DNA of 64,000 nucleotides, taken from positions 32,001 to 96,000 of the forward strand of contig JBHLOC010000004.1 in NCBI GenBank assembly GCA_048940925.1. The letters run 5' to 3'. The notes under the pieces were generated by a model. The model saw only the letters and a program-made list of their open reading frames with translations. It made no database searches and was not told the origin of the DNA. Positions 3,628 through 13,645 of the stretch are shown in pieces. How positions within the stretch are numbered: the stretch's first letter is position 1; each line of letters starts with the position of its first letter. Made by a program: the position numbers and the translations under genes. This DNA is from Promethearchaeota archaeon. GTDB lineage: Archaea > Asgardarchaeota > Lokiarchaeia > Sigyniarchaeales > SOKP01.

Positions 3628-4188
3628 TTGGATATGAATAGAGAAGAGTGGCAAAAGTCGAAGGGAGAAGAAATACTTAGAGAATTTGGTATTAAAGAAG
3701 ACCAAAAAATATTAGATTTTGGATGTGGATCAGGAGTATATTCAATCATTGCTTCGAGAATAGTAGGTAACACAGGGAAAATTTATGCGCTTGATTGTGA
3801 GGAAGCCCCATTAGAAGAGTTATCAAGCAAAATCACAACTCAAAATATTAGTAATATTGAAATCATAAAAACTTCGAAAAAAATATCGATTCCATTGAAA
3901 TCTGATTCTCTAGATGTAGTATTAATGTATGATGTATATCATTTACTTGAAAAGGATGATCGAATCCAATTGTTAGATGAGATACATCGAGTTTTAAAAA
4001 GTAATAATGGGATTCTATCTTATTTTGCTACTCATATAGGTTCTTATGGAATTCAATTAAATAAAGTCCAAGAACAAATAAAGAAAGCAGGTTTTGAATT
4101 TATAGAGCAGTTTAAGCGCCCAATGTTTCATTGGACTTGGATTGAGCAAGGTATGATTTTTAAATATAAAAAAATAGGAAAAAAATAA
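3628..4188 (+). CDS. Class I SAM-dependent methyltransferase
   Basis: ILDFGCGSG motif I; DVVLMYDVYH; EIHRVLK. Confidence 0.92.
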   Translation: MDMNREEWQKSKGEEILREFGIKEDQKILDFGCGSGVYSIIASRIVGNTGKIYALDCEEAPLEELSSKITTQNISNIEIIKTSKKISIPLKSDSLDVVLMYDVYHLLEKDDRIQLLDEIHRVLKSNNGILSYFATHIGSYGIQLNKVQEQIKKAGFEFIEQFKRPMFHWTWIEQGMIFKYKKIGKK

Positions 4189-4190
4189 AA

Positions 4191-4961
4191 TTATTTTCTC
4201 GCTGTAAATATTCCGAATCCTGTGATATTCTCATATCTTATATTTTTGAAATTGTATTTATTTAATAATTTTTCCCAGTGCTCTTTATTCCTGAAAGCAA
4301 AGCAACACAAGCCACTAAATGCTACTAATTGCCATGACGTTCGATTCCATTCACTCAAGTAAAGATATCCATCAGGCTTTAAAACGCGATAAATCTCTTG
4401 CAGTGCTTTATCTTGACCGTTTGGTTCATGCACTTCATGAAGTACTGAAGAAACATTAACAATATCAAATGTATTTTTTTCAAAAGGGATGTTAGAAGCA
4501 GAACCATATTGAAAAGTAGTTCTGTCTTCAACTTTTTCAATTCTAGCATTATTTTGTACCTTATCTAAAGCATTACCCGGAATTGCTAGTTTTGAATAAA
4601 TATCAATACCGTATAAAAGTCCTCCTTTCTTTAATTCTTTAGCAATTCTAATCGCTGTTCTTCCAGTTCCACATCCTACGTCTAAAATCTGGGGATTATC
4701 AATTTCTTCTAATGCTTTCATTCTAGCAATTAAATCTATTTTTGGCATTTTTCGTAATAACAATATATGCATCGTAATCATTCCAATACCTGGCCATAAA
4801 AATACCAAAACGATAGCTAAACCCGAAATAATAAAAATTATTTGCACTACTCCATCTATTAAGAATCCATAAATAAAAACAGATAAACCTATTAATCCTA
4901 TGATATTGAATCCAATAATTAGATTCTTCACATACCATCCATATTTAGGTTTTGCTTCCAT
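4191..4961 (-). CDS. Class I SAM-dependent methyltransferase with N-terminal TM helices
   Basis: Two N-terminal TMs; ILDVGCGTG; FDIVNVSSVLHEV; EIYRVLKPDG. Confidence 0.92.
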   Translation of the reverse strand: MEAKPKYGWYVKNLIIGFNIIGLIGLSVFIYGFLIDGVVQIIFIISGLAIVLVFLWPGIGMITMHILLLRKMPKIDLIARMKALEEIDNPQILDVGCGTGRTAIRIAKELKKGGLLYGIDIYSKLAIPGNALDKVQNNARIEKVEDRTTFQYGSASNIPFEKNTFDIVNVSSVLHEVHEPNGQDKALQEIYRVLKPDGYLYLSEWNRTSWQLVAFSGLCCFAFRNKEHWEKLLNKYNFKNIRYENITGFGIFTARK

Positions 4962-4973
4962 CTTTATTTCGAC

Positions 4974-5507
4974 CTAGATTTTAATAAAATTATATTGTTT
5001 ATCAATCACTTCAGTCAATTTGAAAAGTCCTTTGGATGTGATCAGATTTATTATTTCATCTTCATTCATATGATGATCATCAAATGAAAGGATTGAATTT
5101 AGCTTTAAAACTCGATAAAATTCTTTTAATATATTAAATTTATTAGAGATGTCATGAAGTACATCAAAACAAATAATTTTATCAATACTTTCATTATCTA
5201 ATCCAGTAGCACAGTCTGTCTGAATTGTTTCAATATTAGTATAACCCATTCTTTCAGCTTTTTTTTTAATCTTTTCTAATGCCAATGGATGAATATCTGC
5301 AGCAAAAACTTTCCCATTTGGTCCTAATTCCTCAACTGCAGCTATTGTATAACTTCCTGATCCACACCCATAATCTAAGATTATATCTCCTAGTTTTATA
5401 TTAGCTTTTCTAATCTTATTTACAGGAGGGTAAAACTTATCACGAATTTTGAAAAAAAATGACATAAATCTAAAATCGATATTTGATTGTTTTTTATTCT
5501 TCTTCAT
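4974..5507 (-). CDS. Class I SAM-dependent methyltransferase
   Basis: ILDYGCGSG; FAADIHP; FDVLHD; EFYRVLK. Confidence 0.92.
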   Translation of the reverse strand: MKKNKKQSNIDFRFMSFFFKIRDKFYPPVNKIRKANIKLGDIILDYGCGSGSYTIAAVEELGPNGKVFAADIHPLALEKIKKKAERMGYTNIETIQTDCATGLDNESIDKIICFDVLHDISNKFNILKEFYRVLKLNSILSFDDHHMNEDEIINLITSKGLFKLTEVIDKQYNFIKI

Positions 5508-9915: not shown

Positions 9916-10881
9916 TTAAAATCCATTTTTCCATTTTTTAAAAGAACCAAAACCTTCCTTTTCAAATTTAATTTGTTTATTTTTTTTATCAAAAATAATT
10001 GAAAGAAAATAAGAAGATCTTCTTGAATAACTTTCAGCCAAGATTAACACAATTTGAATTGAATTTTTGTTTTCTTGGAAAAATGGAATAATTGAATCCC
10101 ATTTATGAAAGAATCTGTATTCCTGACTTAGACTCTCAGCTAATTCATAGTATAACATATTCTCTGAATTTTTTAAAATATTATGATTAAAAATTTCTTT
10201 TCGTCTAGAGGAAAACACAAATTTTTTCATCAATTTAAAAGTAATACCATCTTCATTTATGTCTTTCTCATAAATAAAATAAGACCACGGTAAAATACCT
10301 GGAACATAATGTTGATTCTTTTGAAGTTTCACTTGTACTAAGATTCTTAAAATTGCGCGTGCTCCAAAATAACATAAATATATGGAAGAATATATCGTGG
10401 TAAGAGCTCGAAATAAATAGTAATTTGGAATTGTAAGGAATAGCATAAATAAAGTAAAAAAGTTTATACCTGAAAAGATAAAAAGAATAGGATTTATTGC
10501 TCTGTCAGCGAGAAATCTATACTCTTTTTTTGAAATCGGGTAAAAAATCGGAACTTTTGAAGCCGTAAAGAGATCTAGAGTCACATGAAGACTATATCCT
10601 ATGAAACCAGCAATCCAAATCTCAATAAATATACCATTTGTTAAAATTGATATGATTAAACTAAAAATACCAGTAAAAAATAAACCACTGACATAAGAGT
10701 GAGTGCCTGCTCTATGTGATAAGTAATATAATTTATATTTTCTCGATATTGGTTCAAATAATAGATCAATATCAGGGAAAATAGCCATAACGACCAAAAA
10801 GAGGACTGATTCTGAAGATAAAGTAAGTACTAGAGGGAAATATGCTAAAATTCCAATAAGTGTATGTGTAAAAATATCCAT
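9916..10881 (-). CDS. Membrane-bound metal-dependent hydrolase (YdjM-like)
   Basis: MDIFTHTLIG; FPDID; HRAGTHS; SLHVTLDLFT. Confidence 0.88.
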   Translation of the reverse strand: MDIFTHTLIGILAYFPLVLTLSSESVLFLVVMAIFPDIDLLFEPISRKYKLYYLSHRAGTHSYVSGLFFTGIFSLIISILTNGIFIEIWIAGFIGYSLHVTLDLFTASKVPIFYPISKKEYRFLADRAINPILFIFSGINFFTLFMLFLTIPNYYLFRALTTIYSSIYLCYFGARAILRILVQVKLQKNQHYVPGILPWSYFIYEKDINEDGITFKLMKKFVFSSRRKEIFNHNILKNSENMLYYELAESLSQEYRFFHKWDSIIPFFQENKNSIQIVLILAESYSRRSSYFLSIIFDKKNKQIKFEKEGFGSFKKWKNGF

Positions 10882-10949
10882 TTTTAATATTAAAGGATTT
10901 AAATTTTTATTTTTTGAAAATTTATTGCTTTTAAGGAGGCAATCCTATT

Positions 10950-10985
10950 GTCAATCTTTTACTATCATTTTTTAAAAGACTTCAT
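10950..10985 (-). promoter_or_regulatory. Putative SECIS element (eukaryote/Lokiarchaeota type)
   Basis: Minus strand AUGA-AGUCUUUUA-AAAAAUGAUAG-UAAAAGAUU-GAC: AUGA/GA core, 9-bp stem (one G.U), A-rich apical loop; begins 5 nt after the TGA at 10991-10993. Confidence 0.75.
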
Positions 10986-10990
10986 TCAAA

Positions 10991-11470
10991 TCATTCATTA
11001 ATTCTTTTAACTTCAAAATAATGAGCGAATTCTTCATCATTTTTTCCAAATTTTTTCATGATAATCCTTTTAAAAGTACCAAAATCTACACGTTCCTTCA
11101 TGACATCAGCTCATCAATCAGCATGGACTACTATTGTAATCTCACTTTCAGGAATTAAGTTAAAATTAATATCCTCCTGAAGCGGTATGAACTCTCTATT
11201 GGGACCATAAGCATTTACAGCGCAGTCTTCATAAATCTTATTCTCCTCCGAATCCCAAATTAATTGGAGGAAGCTATGAATTAAGCCTTTATATATTGGA
11301 AAAATAGAGTTTTTTGGATTTTCATACATATGTTTATCTAAAATACTCAATGCATCAATAATAGTTCCATCATCTTTTAAATCTAAATTGTATTCTATCC
11401 CCTTTGATAACTTTTTTTCAGGATCAGGGGCAAATATTGTTAGTTTAATATTCTTAATTCTAAAATTCAC
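10991..11470 (-). CDS. Putative selenoprotein: beta-grasp (ubiquitin/MoaD-like) domain + Sec-Sec + 39-aa tail (159 aa; 118 aa if the first TGA terminates)
   Basis: ...ITIVVHAD-TGA(11114-6)-TGA(11111-3)-ADVMKERVDFGTFKRIIMKKFGKNDEEFAHYFEVKRINE-TGA, followed by a SECIS-like hairpin. N-terminal pattern (LDLKDDGTIIDALSIL...LIPESEITIV) resembles the MoaD/SAMP fold but has no terminal GG. Confidence 0.7.
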
Positions 11471-11503
11471 CTCAAAATTATAAAAATATAAATTTACTAA
11501 GCA

Positions 11504-11917
11504 CTAAATAAGCCCTTTAGCTTTAAGTAGTTTGGGTAATTCCTTTCTAAGAGTAATTGAGGAAGAAACTTTTATCTCTCCATCAAGAACCACACATTTA
11601 TTATGAAGATTTAATTTTCTAGCTTCTTTTGAATTTAGGTTTTTTGTATCGTAGTCGATATGTTTTATATAAGGGGTGAGCTCTACAAAAACACGATTTA
11701 TGAATTTATCCCACTCACAAGCACATACATCTAAAGGCACATAGATATCTACTTTCAATTTTCCTTCTTTTAAGCTTTTAAGATTATCTAAGCTACAGCT
11801 TTCTTTTCCACAATGTAAATCTGAATCAATACTACAAAAATCTCCCCAATAATCAGGTGATGCCCTAATTTCTTTCATAACCTTTTCTACAGTTTTATCT
11901 ATCTCATGATCAGACAT
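11504..11917 (-). CDS. Cys-rich thioredoxin-like / ArsD-like protein
   Basis: KVDIYVPLDVCACEW (CxC after the first strand) and KCVVLDGEIKV...LRKELPKLL resemble the ArsD/Trx-like fold; N-terminal C-x7-C-x4-C; lies directly downstream of acr3. Confidence 0.6.
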   Translation of the reverse strand: MSDHEIDKTVEKVMKEIRASPDYWGDFCSIDSDLHCGKESCSLDNLKSLKEGKLKVDIYVPLDVCACEWDKFINRVFVELTPYIKHIDYDTKNLNSKEARKLNLHNKCVVLDGEIKVSSSITLRKELPKLLKAKGLI

Positions 11918-11990
11918 ATCTTCTTTATTCCTTTTTTTTATACTTATTAAAATCTATTCTAAACAAAATATTTTTTGAATATATTTTAGT

Positions 11991-13049
11991 TTATTGAGTT
12001 TTCCAAAATCTCCGTTTTTGAAGATATCGTCCCAAATATACAATTGAAAGCATTACTGGAACCTCCCAAAACAATCCCATTGTAGTTCCTAATGCTGCGA
12101 TTGAACCAATTCCATACATAGCAATAGCTGTAGCGATAGCAATTTCAAAATGACTTGATGAACCAATAATTACTGTAATGATCGCTTCTCTATATTTTAA
12201 TTTAAATAGTTTCGTGATGAAAATATTATATCCAACAACAATTACAAATCCAAGTAATAACGGTATCGATACTAAAAGCAAGAGTTTTGGATTATGTATT
12301 AAGACATCTCCATTCATTGAGAAAAGAACAATCAAAGTTGTTAGTAAAGCTACAATTGATATCTTTCCGACTATAGGTCTATAGGTATTGTTAAACCAAT
12401 CTTCACCTTTAGAAGATATTAATAATCTTTTACTAATTACTCCTAATAGAAGGGGAAGCCCAATAAAGATAAAGATCGAGACTAATAGTAAAATCCAATC
12501 AACAGGTATGTTTTGAATGCCTGTTAATAATGTTACCATAGGAGCATAACCGAATATTATTGTTATCGTATTAAGACTTGTGTTCACTACATTTTGTTCT
12601 TGATTCCCTTTTGCCATCCATCCCCATACTAAAACCATCGCCGTACAAGGACTTGAACTTAATAAAATTATGGCAACTATTAATTGTTCATACCCAGGTA
12701 CAAAAATTCGAGCCATAAGCAAACCAACAAATGGAGCAATTAACCAATTAGAGATTATTGTCAAGATTATTGGTTTGGGATTTCTTCCTAATTTTTTTAA
12801 TTCAGAGACTTGTAGGTTCAACATTGCAGGATACATCATTAAAAATAAACAGATCCCGATAGGTATAGAAATTTGACCTATACTCAAAGCATTTATAGCT
12901 TGGCTAATTCCAGGAATTATCTGGGAAAAAAGAATTCCAATGACGATGCATAATGCAACCCATAAGGGAAGAAACTTTTCAAAAAATCCTAGTTTTTTAG
13001 ATTCTGCATCTTTAGTTATTGAAATTTCCTCTGTTTCTGATACACTCAT
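11991..13049 (-). CDS. acr3: ACR3-family arsenite efflux transporter
   Basis: LGFFEKFLPLWVALCIVIG; IGICLFLMMYPAM; NWLIAPF; SPCTAMVLVW; SSHFEIAIATAIAMYG; FWEVPVML. Confidence 0.96.
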   Translation of the reverse strand: MSVSETEEISITKDAESKKLGFFEKFLPLWVALCIVIGILFSQIIPGISQAINALSIGQISIPIGICLFLMMYPAMLNLQVSELKKLGRNPKPIILTIISNWLIAPFVGLLMARIFVPGYEQLIVAIILLSSSPCTAMVLVWGWMAKGNQEQNVVNTSLNTITIIFGYAPMVTLLTGIQNIPVDWILLLVSIFIFIGLPLLLGVISKRLLISSKGEDWFNNTYRPIVGKISIVALLTTLIVLFSMNGDVLIHNPKLLLLVSIPLLLGFVIVVGYNIFITKLFKLKYREAIITVIIGSSSHFEIAIATAIAMYGIGSIAALGTTMGLFWEVPVMLSIVYLGRYLQKRRFWKTQ

Positions 13050-13243
13050 CCGTTTTCACTAAATTTTATGAAAATTTTTTTAAAAAACTTAATTTATATT
13101 TATAGGGTTTGAGATATTTATGAAATGCATCAAATAAAAATATTTGGATTTAAAGAATTTAACAAAATATTTATATTAACTTAAACATAAGTTGATCAAT
13201 ATATATATAATTTATAAATCTTGAAATAGTTCTAAAAAAGTGG

Positions 13244-13645
13244 GTGATGGTAATAAATAAAAGGCGCACTATTGAGATAACAGACTCCCTCGAGAGTTGT
13301 ATTAACATGACTGAAATCGATGTTAAAACCTACTTTCGAGATTTGCAAGATTTGGGGAAAAATTTAGAAAAATCTAATAAATTTAAGAAATTATTAGAAT
13401 TTTGTTATGTAATTGGTAATAAAGAGCGTTTAAAAATAATTGCAGCATTAAAAGATAATGACCATTGCGTTTGTGAATTAGAAGCAATCTTAGATAAATC
13501 GCAACCATCAATATCACATCATCTTAGAATTCTTGAAAGCATTGGGCTTATAAGAAGCTTTAAAAAAGGTAAATTTACTCATTATGACATTATTAAAGAA
13601 ACAGTTAATTCATATTTAGATCTACTAAATCAAGAATTAATTTAA
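13244..13645 (+). CDS. arsR: ArsR/SmtB metalloregulator
   Basis: ERLKIIAAL...HCVCELEAILDKSQPSISHHLRILESIGLI...KKGKFTHY; CVC As(III)-type site; divergent from acr3. Confidence 0.92.
   Translation: MMVINKRRTIEITDSLESCINMTEIDVKTYFRDLQDLGKNLEKSNKFKKLLEFCYVIGNKERLKIIAALKDNDHCVCELEAILDKSQPSISHHLRILESIGLIRSFKKGKFTHYDIIKETVNSYLDLLNQELI

Follow-up and report, generated by a model that had tools for sequence, protein, structure and literature searches.

The acr3 locus and its proteins

The window analysed here is a stretch of 64,000 nucleotides from the genome of a Promethearchaeota archaeon (assembly GCA_048940925.1, contig JBHLOC010000004.1, positions 32,001 to 96,000), and our subject is a small arsenic-resistance locus within it, in which the arsenite exporter gene acr3 is followed by genes for two small proteins, here called B and A. 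Coordinates are those of the window unless a fetched locus (L) or a genome (G) is named; G000 is the window's own genome. The gene arsR (13244-13645, plus strand) encodes an ArsR/SmtB repressor with a CVC metalloid site, and the ATG at 13309 is its likely real start. It is divergent from a minus-strand run of acr3 (11991-13049), which encodes a divergent subtype of the ACR3 arsenite efflux permease, B (11504-11917), which encodes a Cys-rich thioredoxin-fold protein of 137 residues, and A (10991-11470, with a GTG start codon at 11470), which encodes a selenoprotein of 159 residues. The gaps are 73 nt between acr3 and B and 33 nt between B and A. A carries an in-frame TGA-TGA at 11111-11116 and is followed by a eukaryote-like selenocysteine insertion sequence (SECIS) at 10929-10989, both on the minus strand. 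The genes and gaps lie where the original prediction, made from the DNA letters alone, had placed them; the span it gave, 10950-13645, contains all four genes and cuts through the SECIS element at its lower bound. The region 13050-13243 is assigned as the arsR/acr3 control region from its position. The inverted repeats that an operator search returned from this spacer were low-complexity AT palindromes, indistinguishable from the AT-rich background.

As had also been predicted, hidden Markov models found neither arsC nor arsA within the locus. The ArsC profile PF03960 has no match anywhere in the window's genome, which has no glutaredoxin (Grx)-type ArsC. Matches to LMWPc (PF01451) point to three LMWP-type candidates, all on other contigs, and ArsA/Get3-like genes are likewise present elsewhere in the genome.

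Read with TGA as selenocysteine (Sec, or U), A consists of 118 residues, U119-U120 and 39 further residues, and ends at a stop TGA at 10991-10993. Neither A nor B matches any Pfam or NCBIfam family. Database relatives of A either end at residue 118 or, where genes had been called with code 4, run on through '...HADWWAD...', with a tail 60-80% identical to that of the window's protein. Relatives occur in 136 of 400 genomes of the Asgard phylum, including 116 of 134 in the window's family, and every one among the matches listed has at least two in-frame TGAs. In an alignment of 40 sequences both Sec columns are invariant; so are G142, K143, Y151 and F152 in the tail, where R127, L128, D129, G131, F133, K134, F148 and H150 are nearly so. 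Such a pattern of conservation is expected only under translation, indicating that the tail is translated. Cys is absent from both U positions in all relatives found. The window's genome also uses Sec in other genes, since HdrA and VhuD genes with in-frame UGA stand upstream of matches to the SECIS model described below. Judged from its sequence and those of its relatives, with their conserved TGAs, conserved tail and covarying SECIS, A is a genuine selenoprotein, translated through TGA-TGA, as originally proposed.

The SECIS is a 61-nt element directly after the A stop that is common to all orthologues and paralogues. Its AUGA (10982-10985) and GA (10951-10952) flank an 8-bp helix (10974-10981 with 10953-10960) capped by an A-rich apical loop, and the element contains a second, conserved hairpin in which 10943-10948 pairs with 10932-10937. 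Across 42 sequences, 93.9% of the cells are paired and 10 of the 14 pairs are altered on both sides. The observed values were reached by none of 500 shuffles, and registers slid along the alignment were about 50% paired. The element matches the type I SECIS of form AUGA_GA / AAAAA reported for Lokiarchaeia (PMC11227280). In the window the terminal TGA of A is 5 nt ahead of the SECIS, a position at which it would be too near for recoding; most orthologues have TAA there.

A covariance model (R1) built solely from A-family elements matched four further sites in the window's genome (contig C64, 18401-18455; C19, 3220-3280; C41, 146530-146580; C85, 66856-66916; loci L102-L105). Three stand behind VhuD/FrhD-type genes and one behind HdrA, all of these genes carrying in-frame UGA, at least two each. 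Because the model recovers the 3' untranslated regions of other selenoproteins, the A element represents the working SECIS type of this genome. Immediately 3' of the SECIS core, two of the four sites also have a short hairpin rich in GC, so that the second hairpin may belong generally to SECIS elements or terminators in this genome.

An AlphaFold2 (AF2) model of A built from the alignment (pLDDT, the predicted local distance difference score, 89.3; pTM, the predicted template modelling score, 0.86) has a beta-grasp domain at residues 1-118, the Sec pair, and a helical tail at 121-159 with two conserved helices; this fold goes beyond the original prediction. VIA Z scores were 7.1 for the transcobalamin beta domain, 6.9 for the SAMP-like HVO_2177, 6.8 for CysO, 6.4 for SAMP1 and 5.8-6.0 for MoaD-type proteins. 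The alignments span 77-93 residues, and the scores are moderate but the matches mutually consistent. Foldseek had Urm1 and SAMP1 among its top rows and gave Urm1, SAMP1 and HVO_2177 a probability of 0.98-0.99, and a search of the PDB with the A profile found no solved structure by sequence. On its predicted structure, A is a beta-grasp protein of the MoaD/SAMP/Urm1 type. The structural alignments stop at model residues 117-120, so that the Sec pair falls at the point where the sulfur carriers aligned with it terminate. A lacks their Gly-Gly terminus and reads 'HAD-UU-ADVMK...' followed by the 39-residue tail, so that the Sec pair is internal. No E1-like (ThiF/MoeB/UbaA) gene was found among the neighbours examined in the fetched loci.

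The window's type of A (A1) is characterised by 'VHAD-UU-ADVMKER' together with Cys83. In A2 paralogues, as in every distant relative from other Asgard families, the motif is 'PD(A/S)GC-UU' instead, and this sharing identifies 'GC-UU' as the ancestral motif. A sister family of at least 423 beta-grasp proteins (P0275), whose few named members are from Bathyarchaeia, carries the single-Cys motif 'GC(I/T)(T/S)(E/D)'; the Bathyarchaeia proteins retain only the Cys one residue upstream of the U positions. One of these single-Cys relatives overlaps the stop of a radical-SAM gene (L097:6084-7429) and is translationally coupled to it, and in two genomes such a gene is convergent with a carboxyltransferase gene.

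The core of B (residues 54-137) is modelled by AF2 as a thioredoxin fold (beta-alpha-beta-alpha-beta-beta-alpha, core pLDDT about 90) and scores VIA Z 8-10.6 against thioredoxins. P61, L62, C65, C67 and W69 are invariant, and C65-x-C67 stands at the start of helix 1, the usual thioredoxin active-site position. An N-terminal helix and Cys-rich arm (C-x7-C-x4-C) are found only in a subset of orthologues. The original prediction had called B thioredoxin- or ArsD-like. The fold and the placement of the CxC bear out the former; the likeness to ArsD fails, since the invariant motif is C65-x-C67 only and not the ArsD pattern of C12, C13 and C18, and ArsD is absent from the top rows of the fold searches. 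Nor does B match PF13192 (Thioredoxin_3, or 'ArsE'), for which a genome-wide search identified four other loci. By sequence, B is a member of neither ArsD nor Thioredoxin_3.

ArsR and Acr3 are more conventional. ArsR matches PF01022 (HTH_5) at 5.5e-16, reaches 71.8 bits with NF033788, whose cut-off is 55, and has the motif 'HCVCELE', which places it among ArsR/SmtB repressors; homologues are divergent from acr3 in 14 of the fetched loci. The window's Acr3 passes TIGR00832 marginally, with 288.2 bits against a cut-off of 282.8, and is 30% identical to a second, canonical copy in the same genome that scores 446.7 bits. Transport by Acr3 requires the Cys of the C(T/I)AMV motif and the Glu of the EVPVM motif. 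Both are intact in the window's protein, which has 'PCTAMV', 'HFE' and 'EVPVM' where the canonical copy has 'RCIAMV', 'NFE' and 'EVPVM'. The divergent class (about 250-300 bits) is present in 120 of the 134 family genomes and the canonical class (about 440 bits) in only five, one of which is the window's own, with its copy on contig C12 (L116:7075-8178). Upstream of that copy is a 73-residue Redoxin/AhpC C-terminal fragment (L116:6244-6465, minus strand), which may be the tail of a peroxiredoxin (Prx)-like selenoprotein split by an in-frame TGA.

Linkage of A and B to acr3 across Asgard genomes

Conservation of the neighbourhood was assessed from 45 fetched loci and by matching genome-wide positions of A against those of acr3. 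In at least 84 genomes of the window's family (f1), A lies on the same contig as acr3 and at most 7.1 kb from it; this count is a minimum, as it joins two tables that hold the higher-ranking matches. With a genome size of about 3.8 Mb, a gene placed at random would come this close to acr3 with a probability of about 0.4%. Gaps of 16-18 kb separate the two genes in G225 and G166, and in most other genomes of the family A or acr3 is on a short or separate contig, where linkage is not assessable. Linkage to acr3 and arsR in other genomes, which the original prediction had offered as its own check, is therefore strongly positive, and it recurs in several independent gene orders and near ArsM, DGC-domain and second ArsR genes. 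Taken together, the conserved TGAs, the SECIS covariation and the acr3-A linkage put the arrangement of the window's locus far beyond chance.

Five layouts can be distinguished. The window and most of its genus have arsR divergent from acr3-B-A1. A second layout, seen in L033, L055-57 and L067, reads acr3, a gene for a CpaM::HgcA-like fusion, a gene for an HgcB-like ferredoxin, B and A; L071 adds ArsM to it. In the third, acr3 is adjacent to A2, and a B2-DGC pair shares the run or is close by (L053, L060, L065, L066, L068-70). Here acr3 and A2 are directly adjacent in L053, L066 and L069, L065 has the single run B-DGC-acr3-A, and the paralogous A2/B2 sets go with second copies of acr3. The fourth, L121, has arsR-B-DGC and then an acr3 of canonical type, and its A1 adjoins a second arsR as well as a gene for a Cys-rich DUF5714 protein. 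The fifth lies in other families: an A relative of 25% identity is divergent from acr3 in L080, and in L081 another distant relative is directly behind a CDF cation exporter gene. B paralogues are directly followed by a DGC-domain protein in L053, L060, L065, L068-70 and L121, and the window's operon has no DGC gene. The 'ArsE'-type pairing, with a DGC partner and an arsenic exporter under ArsR control, is thus a property of B relatives and not of the window's operon.

The occurrence of methylation genes in many of the relatives' operons had not been anticipated. L071 encodes a bona fide ArsM (347 bits against NF008823, cut-off 263). The CpaM::HgcA-like protein fuses a CpaM-like S-adenosylmethionine (SAM) methyltransferase to an HgcA-like corrinoid and transmembrane protein with the cap-helix motif 'NVWCAARG'; its gene, at 7223-9303 in L055 and also in L033, L056, L057, L067 and L071, lies between acr3 and B-A. 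Its HgcB-like partner is a 2x[4Fe-4S] ferredoxin ending in 'SCCG'. At 191 and 184 bits the pair falls short of the HgcA and HgcAB-like cut-offs of 275 and 285; it is a candidate module for corrinoid-dependent metalloid methylation. The window's genome has its own copy of the fusion gene on contig C52 (L115:7599-9716), where the HgcAB-like pair is alone, with neither A nor B.

Other genes occur around these loci. Downstream of A in the window is a gene for a YdjM-family membrane protein (9916-10881, minus strand; PF04307), which is probably a transcription unit separate from the ars operon; it holds this place in many, not all, of the fetched loci. The segment 3628-5952, 5-7 kb from the ars operon, contains three class I SAM methyltransferase genes whose best NCBIfam matches include ArsM-type models at far sub-threshold scores, and a gene for a small AbrB-type protein with a weak HgcC-like match (41.9 bits against 70). 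The methyltransferases at 3628-5507 were considered as ArsM and rejected, since they are class I enzymes of a generic kind that score far under the ArsM cut-off. In L121 (1279-1899, plus strand), from G163, a Cys-rich DUF5714 protein ('GGCGFCGTCGGG', 'PRCC') is encoded between the second arsR and A1, and in L121 a lipoate-protein ligase gene lies between A1 and acr3. The CDF cation-efflux protein of L081 (7906-9519, plus strand), which matches ZT_dimer in three stretches, is immediately upstream of a distant A relative with 'GC-UU'.

Proposed function and competing explanations

We read acr3-B-A as an ArsR-controlled arsenite-efflux operon in which A and B form a soft-ligand relay for trivalent metalloid, an interpretation to which we give about an even chance. 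Gene context and residue chemistry suggest that A and B probably bind or hand over arsenic, and from these we infer contact of A with B or with Acr3 and regulation by ArsR. Cytoplasmic As(III) would be captured by the vicinal selenolate pair Sec119-Sec120 of A, aided in most members by the neighbouring Cys of 'GC-UU' or by Cys83 depending on the subfamily, with B supplying a CxC where thioredoxins have their active site. Once bound, the metalloid would be shielded from the selenoenzymes and thiols of the cell itself and delivered to the conserved Cys of Acr3 for export or, in relatives, to an operon-encoded ArsM or HgcAB-like methyltransferase. ArsR would control the operon by sensing through its own CVC site. 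A vicinal chalcogen pair with a nearby Cys is the pattern of the ArsD As(III) site, CxC is that of the ArsR site, and MerA and HgcB carry 'CC' arms; the parallels drawn for A are analogies to these established proteins. Somewhat short of an even chance, in our estimation, is the fuller proposal that A is the first dedicated Acr3 partner and the first protein known with two adjacent selenocysteines, a ubiquitin-like beta-grasp in which the Gly-Gly terminus of a sulfur carrier has been replaced by an internal Sec-Sec metalloid site, and that with the CxC thioredoxin-fold protein B it would make up a selenium-based system for chaperoning arsenic that is widespread among Asgard archaea of the Lokiarchaeia type.

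The original prediction of a selenium-dependent arsenic module is supported in part. The selenoprotein, the fold of B and the linkage stand; membership of B in ArsD does not, and the idea that the pair reduces arsenate in place of ArsC finds no support; the genome has LMWP-type candidates elsewhere. Several further observations weigh against a relay. B has no match to PF06953 (nor any Pfam match at E<=0.1), and a search of the PDB with the B profile returned no ArsD chain at E<=10 and no solved chain by sequence. A third ligand for A is not universal, as the protein of L058 has neither Cys83 nor a Cys preceding UU. A and acr3 are clearly separated in G188 and G276, both complete genomes and the only such cases, by 285-830 kb. 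Lone A1 copies stand beside flavodoxin, Rce1-like or MFS genes (L052, L054, L063), three of five distant Asgard relatives of A have no adjoining metalloid gene, and the contigs examined around the single-Cys Bathyarchaeia relatives contain no arsenic-related or metalloid gene. Finally, all of the linked genomes belong to a single family, and the synteny is therefore partly inheritance.

Four other explanations were considered, which we rank as a redox couple, accessory factors of HgcAB-like methylation, a selenium or sulfur carrier, and mere synteny, in descending order. As a redox couple, A would cycle its Sec-Sec (or Cys-Sec-Sec) site between diselenide or selenenylsulfide and selenols with B as thioredoxin-like partner, reducing arsenate, pentavalent methylarsenicals or adducts of arsenic with sulfur or selenium to trivalent species for Acr3 or for the methyltransferases of the operon. 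The thioredoxin fold of B, with Cys at its active-site position, agrees with this, as does the ancestral 'GC-UU', which resembles a C-terminal redox arm such as the GCUG of mammalian thioredoxin reductase. The locus lacks arsC and the genome a Grx-type enzyme, and many operons have ArsM or a corrinoid methyltransferase with a ferredoxin, whose oxidative methylation cycle needs reductant. However, A has no recognisable oxyanion site (neither a CX5R loop nor an ArsC-like fold), CxC, a motif characteristic of metal sites, serves redox chemistry poorly beside CxxC, the neighbouring genes include no reductase for the pair, and the LMWP-type proteins are candidate arsenate reductases. Moreover, the habitat is anoxic, and As(III) prevails under anoxic conditions. 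We regard a redox couple as unlikely, though the strongest of the four.

The order of the second layout suggests instead that A and B could be substrate-delivery or accessory factors of HgcAB-like metalloid methylation, with the link to acr3 secondary and the pair relocated in the window's genus. HgcB ends in a vicinal 'CC' that parallels UU, and in genus g12 many genomes have acr3 and A about 3.4 kb apart, a distance that agrees with this same insert. Nevertheless, no HgcA-like gene lies between or beside these genes in most genomes of the window's genus or in the layouts with acr3-A2, with B-DGC-acr3-A and of L080, and the isolation of the window genome's own HgcAB-like pair on another contig also argues against this explanation, which seems to us improbable. 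Still less probable is a role for A as a beta-grasp carrier of selenide or persulfide, or as a selenium buffer for a large selenoproteome, merely co-located with acr3. The fold is that of MoaD, ThiS, CysO, SAMP and Urm1, with UU where those aligned chains end, and the single-Cys relatives, one of them coupled to a radical-SAM gene, are not ars-linked. Yet where a carrier would end in Gly-Gly, A continues past its Sec pair into a conserved tail whose fold is predicted with confidence, the fetched loci hold no E1-like activating enzyme, and linkage to acr3 recurs in independent layouts. A neighbourhood without functional meaning, inherited within one family, would account for the confinement of the linked genomes (at least 84) to f1, and YdjM and HD genes without obvious arsenic role are likewise syntenic. 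This reading is already disfavoured and we hold it to be very improbable, because A stays by acr3 though order, strand and intervening genes vary, A2/B2 sets accompany a second acr3, and acr3 has an A relative beside it in another family too.

To our knowledge Acr3 is the most widespread arsenite exporter, and we know of no accessory protein for it. A conserved partner, as the relay would provide, would therefore alter the understanding of Acr3-type resistance, and A would be a natural case of selenolate-based metalloid binding on a fold otherwise devoted to sulfur transfer and protein tagging. The decoding of two adjacent UGAs with one eukaryote-like SECIS offers a mechanistic test case for the Asgard and eukaryote-type Sec machinery, and the presence of an HgcAB-like methyltransferase inside an ars operon bears on what HgcAB-type proteins evolved to do.

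Comparison with known systems

In role, B may be likened to ArsD and 'ArsE', though it fails the sequence test for both. Like ArsD (PF06953, the partner of ArsA), it is a small thioredoxin-fold protein of an ars operon with clustered thiols near the N-terminus of helix 1, and the vicinal chalcogen pair of A mirrors Cys12-Cys13 (with Cys18) of ArsD. In contrast to ArsD, B has a CxC rather than CC...C and no sequence match, the partner would be Acr3 rather than ArsA, and the vicinal pair is on A, of selenium, and on a beta-grasp fold. The arsenic-induced operon C of Pseudodesulfovibrio mercurii ND132, with arsR-arsP and a pair of a thioredoxin-like protein (PF13192, ArsE) and a DGC protein (PF08859), has been described (bioRxiv 10.1101/2022.10.17.512643). 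B paralogues similarly stand directly before a DGC protein in ArsR-headed operons with an arsenic exporter, whereas B has no PF13192 match, the exporter is Acr3 and not ArsP, the window's operon is without DGC, and no selenoprotein has been described in arsR-arsP operons.

A shares its fold with MoaD, ThiS, CysO, SAMP and Urm1, and its reactive residues also come right after the last strand. It differs from them in having no sequence similarity and no Gly-Gly, in its Sec-Sec with a conserved helical tail of 39 residues, and in the lack of an E1-like gene nearby. The vicinal arms of MerA and HgcB ('CC') and of mammalian thioredoxin reductase ('GCUG') place adjacent Cys or Sec on a flexible segment that captures soft metals or shuttles electrons, a likeness seen in the ancestral 'GC-UU' of A and in the 'SCCG' of the HgcB-like ferredoxin of sister operons. 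Those arms belong to other folds and proteins, whereas the pair in A consists of two internal selenocysteines, with no flavin or Fe-S domain.

The Asgard selenoproteome is reported to comprise SelD, FrhA/VhuU, HdrA, FrhD/VhuD, Prx-like, AhpF-N and DsbA-like proteins (PMC4989117, PMC11227280). A has the same eukaryote-like type I SECIS, with the AUGA_GA core and A-rich loop, and occurs in the same host lineages, but neither the family nor an adjacent Sec-Sec is reported in those studies. The sets of Mariotti 2016 (five families) and Huang 2024 (seven families) do not include family A, nor does a 2026 review, and family B is likewise absent from the Asgard selenoproteome papers examined. Homology surveys, which relied on known selenoproteins or Cys homologues, missed A, which has no Cys homologue at the Sec positions. 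It makes an eighth Asgard selenoprotein family, restricted to Asgard as far as our searches extend.

Metal- and metalloid-linked selenoproteins of bacteria include ArsM selenoproteins, Sec-ArsC, MbdU and SaoB/SaoC (review, PMC13188914). In these, as proposed for A, the suggested role of Sec in resistance to arsenic or heavy metals is that of a ligand or a catalyst; A differs in being archaeal, in its fold, in the UU motif and in matching no NCBIfam family. Since selenoproteins in an arsenic context are known from bacteria, the kind of protein is already known. Within the literature and libraries searched, what is new is family A itself, with its Sec-Sec site, its fold and its putative partnership with Acr3.

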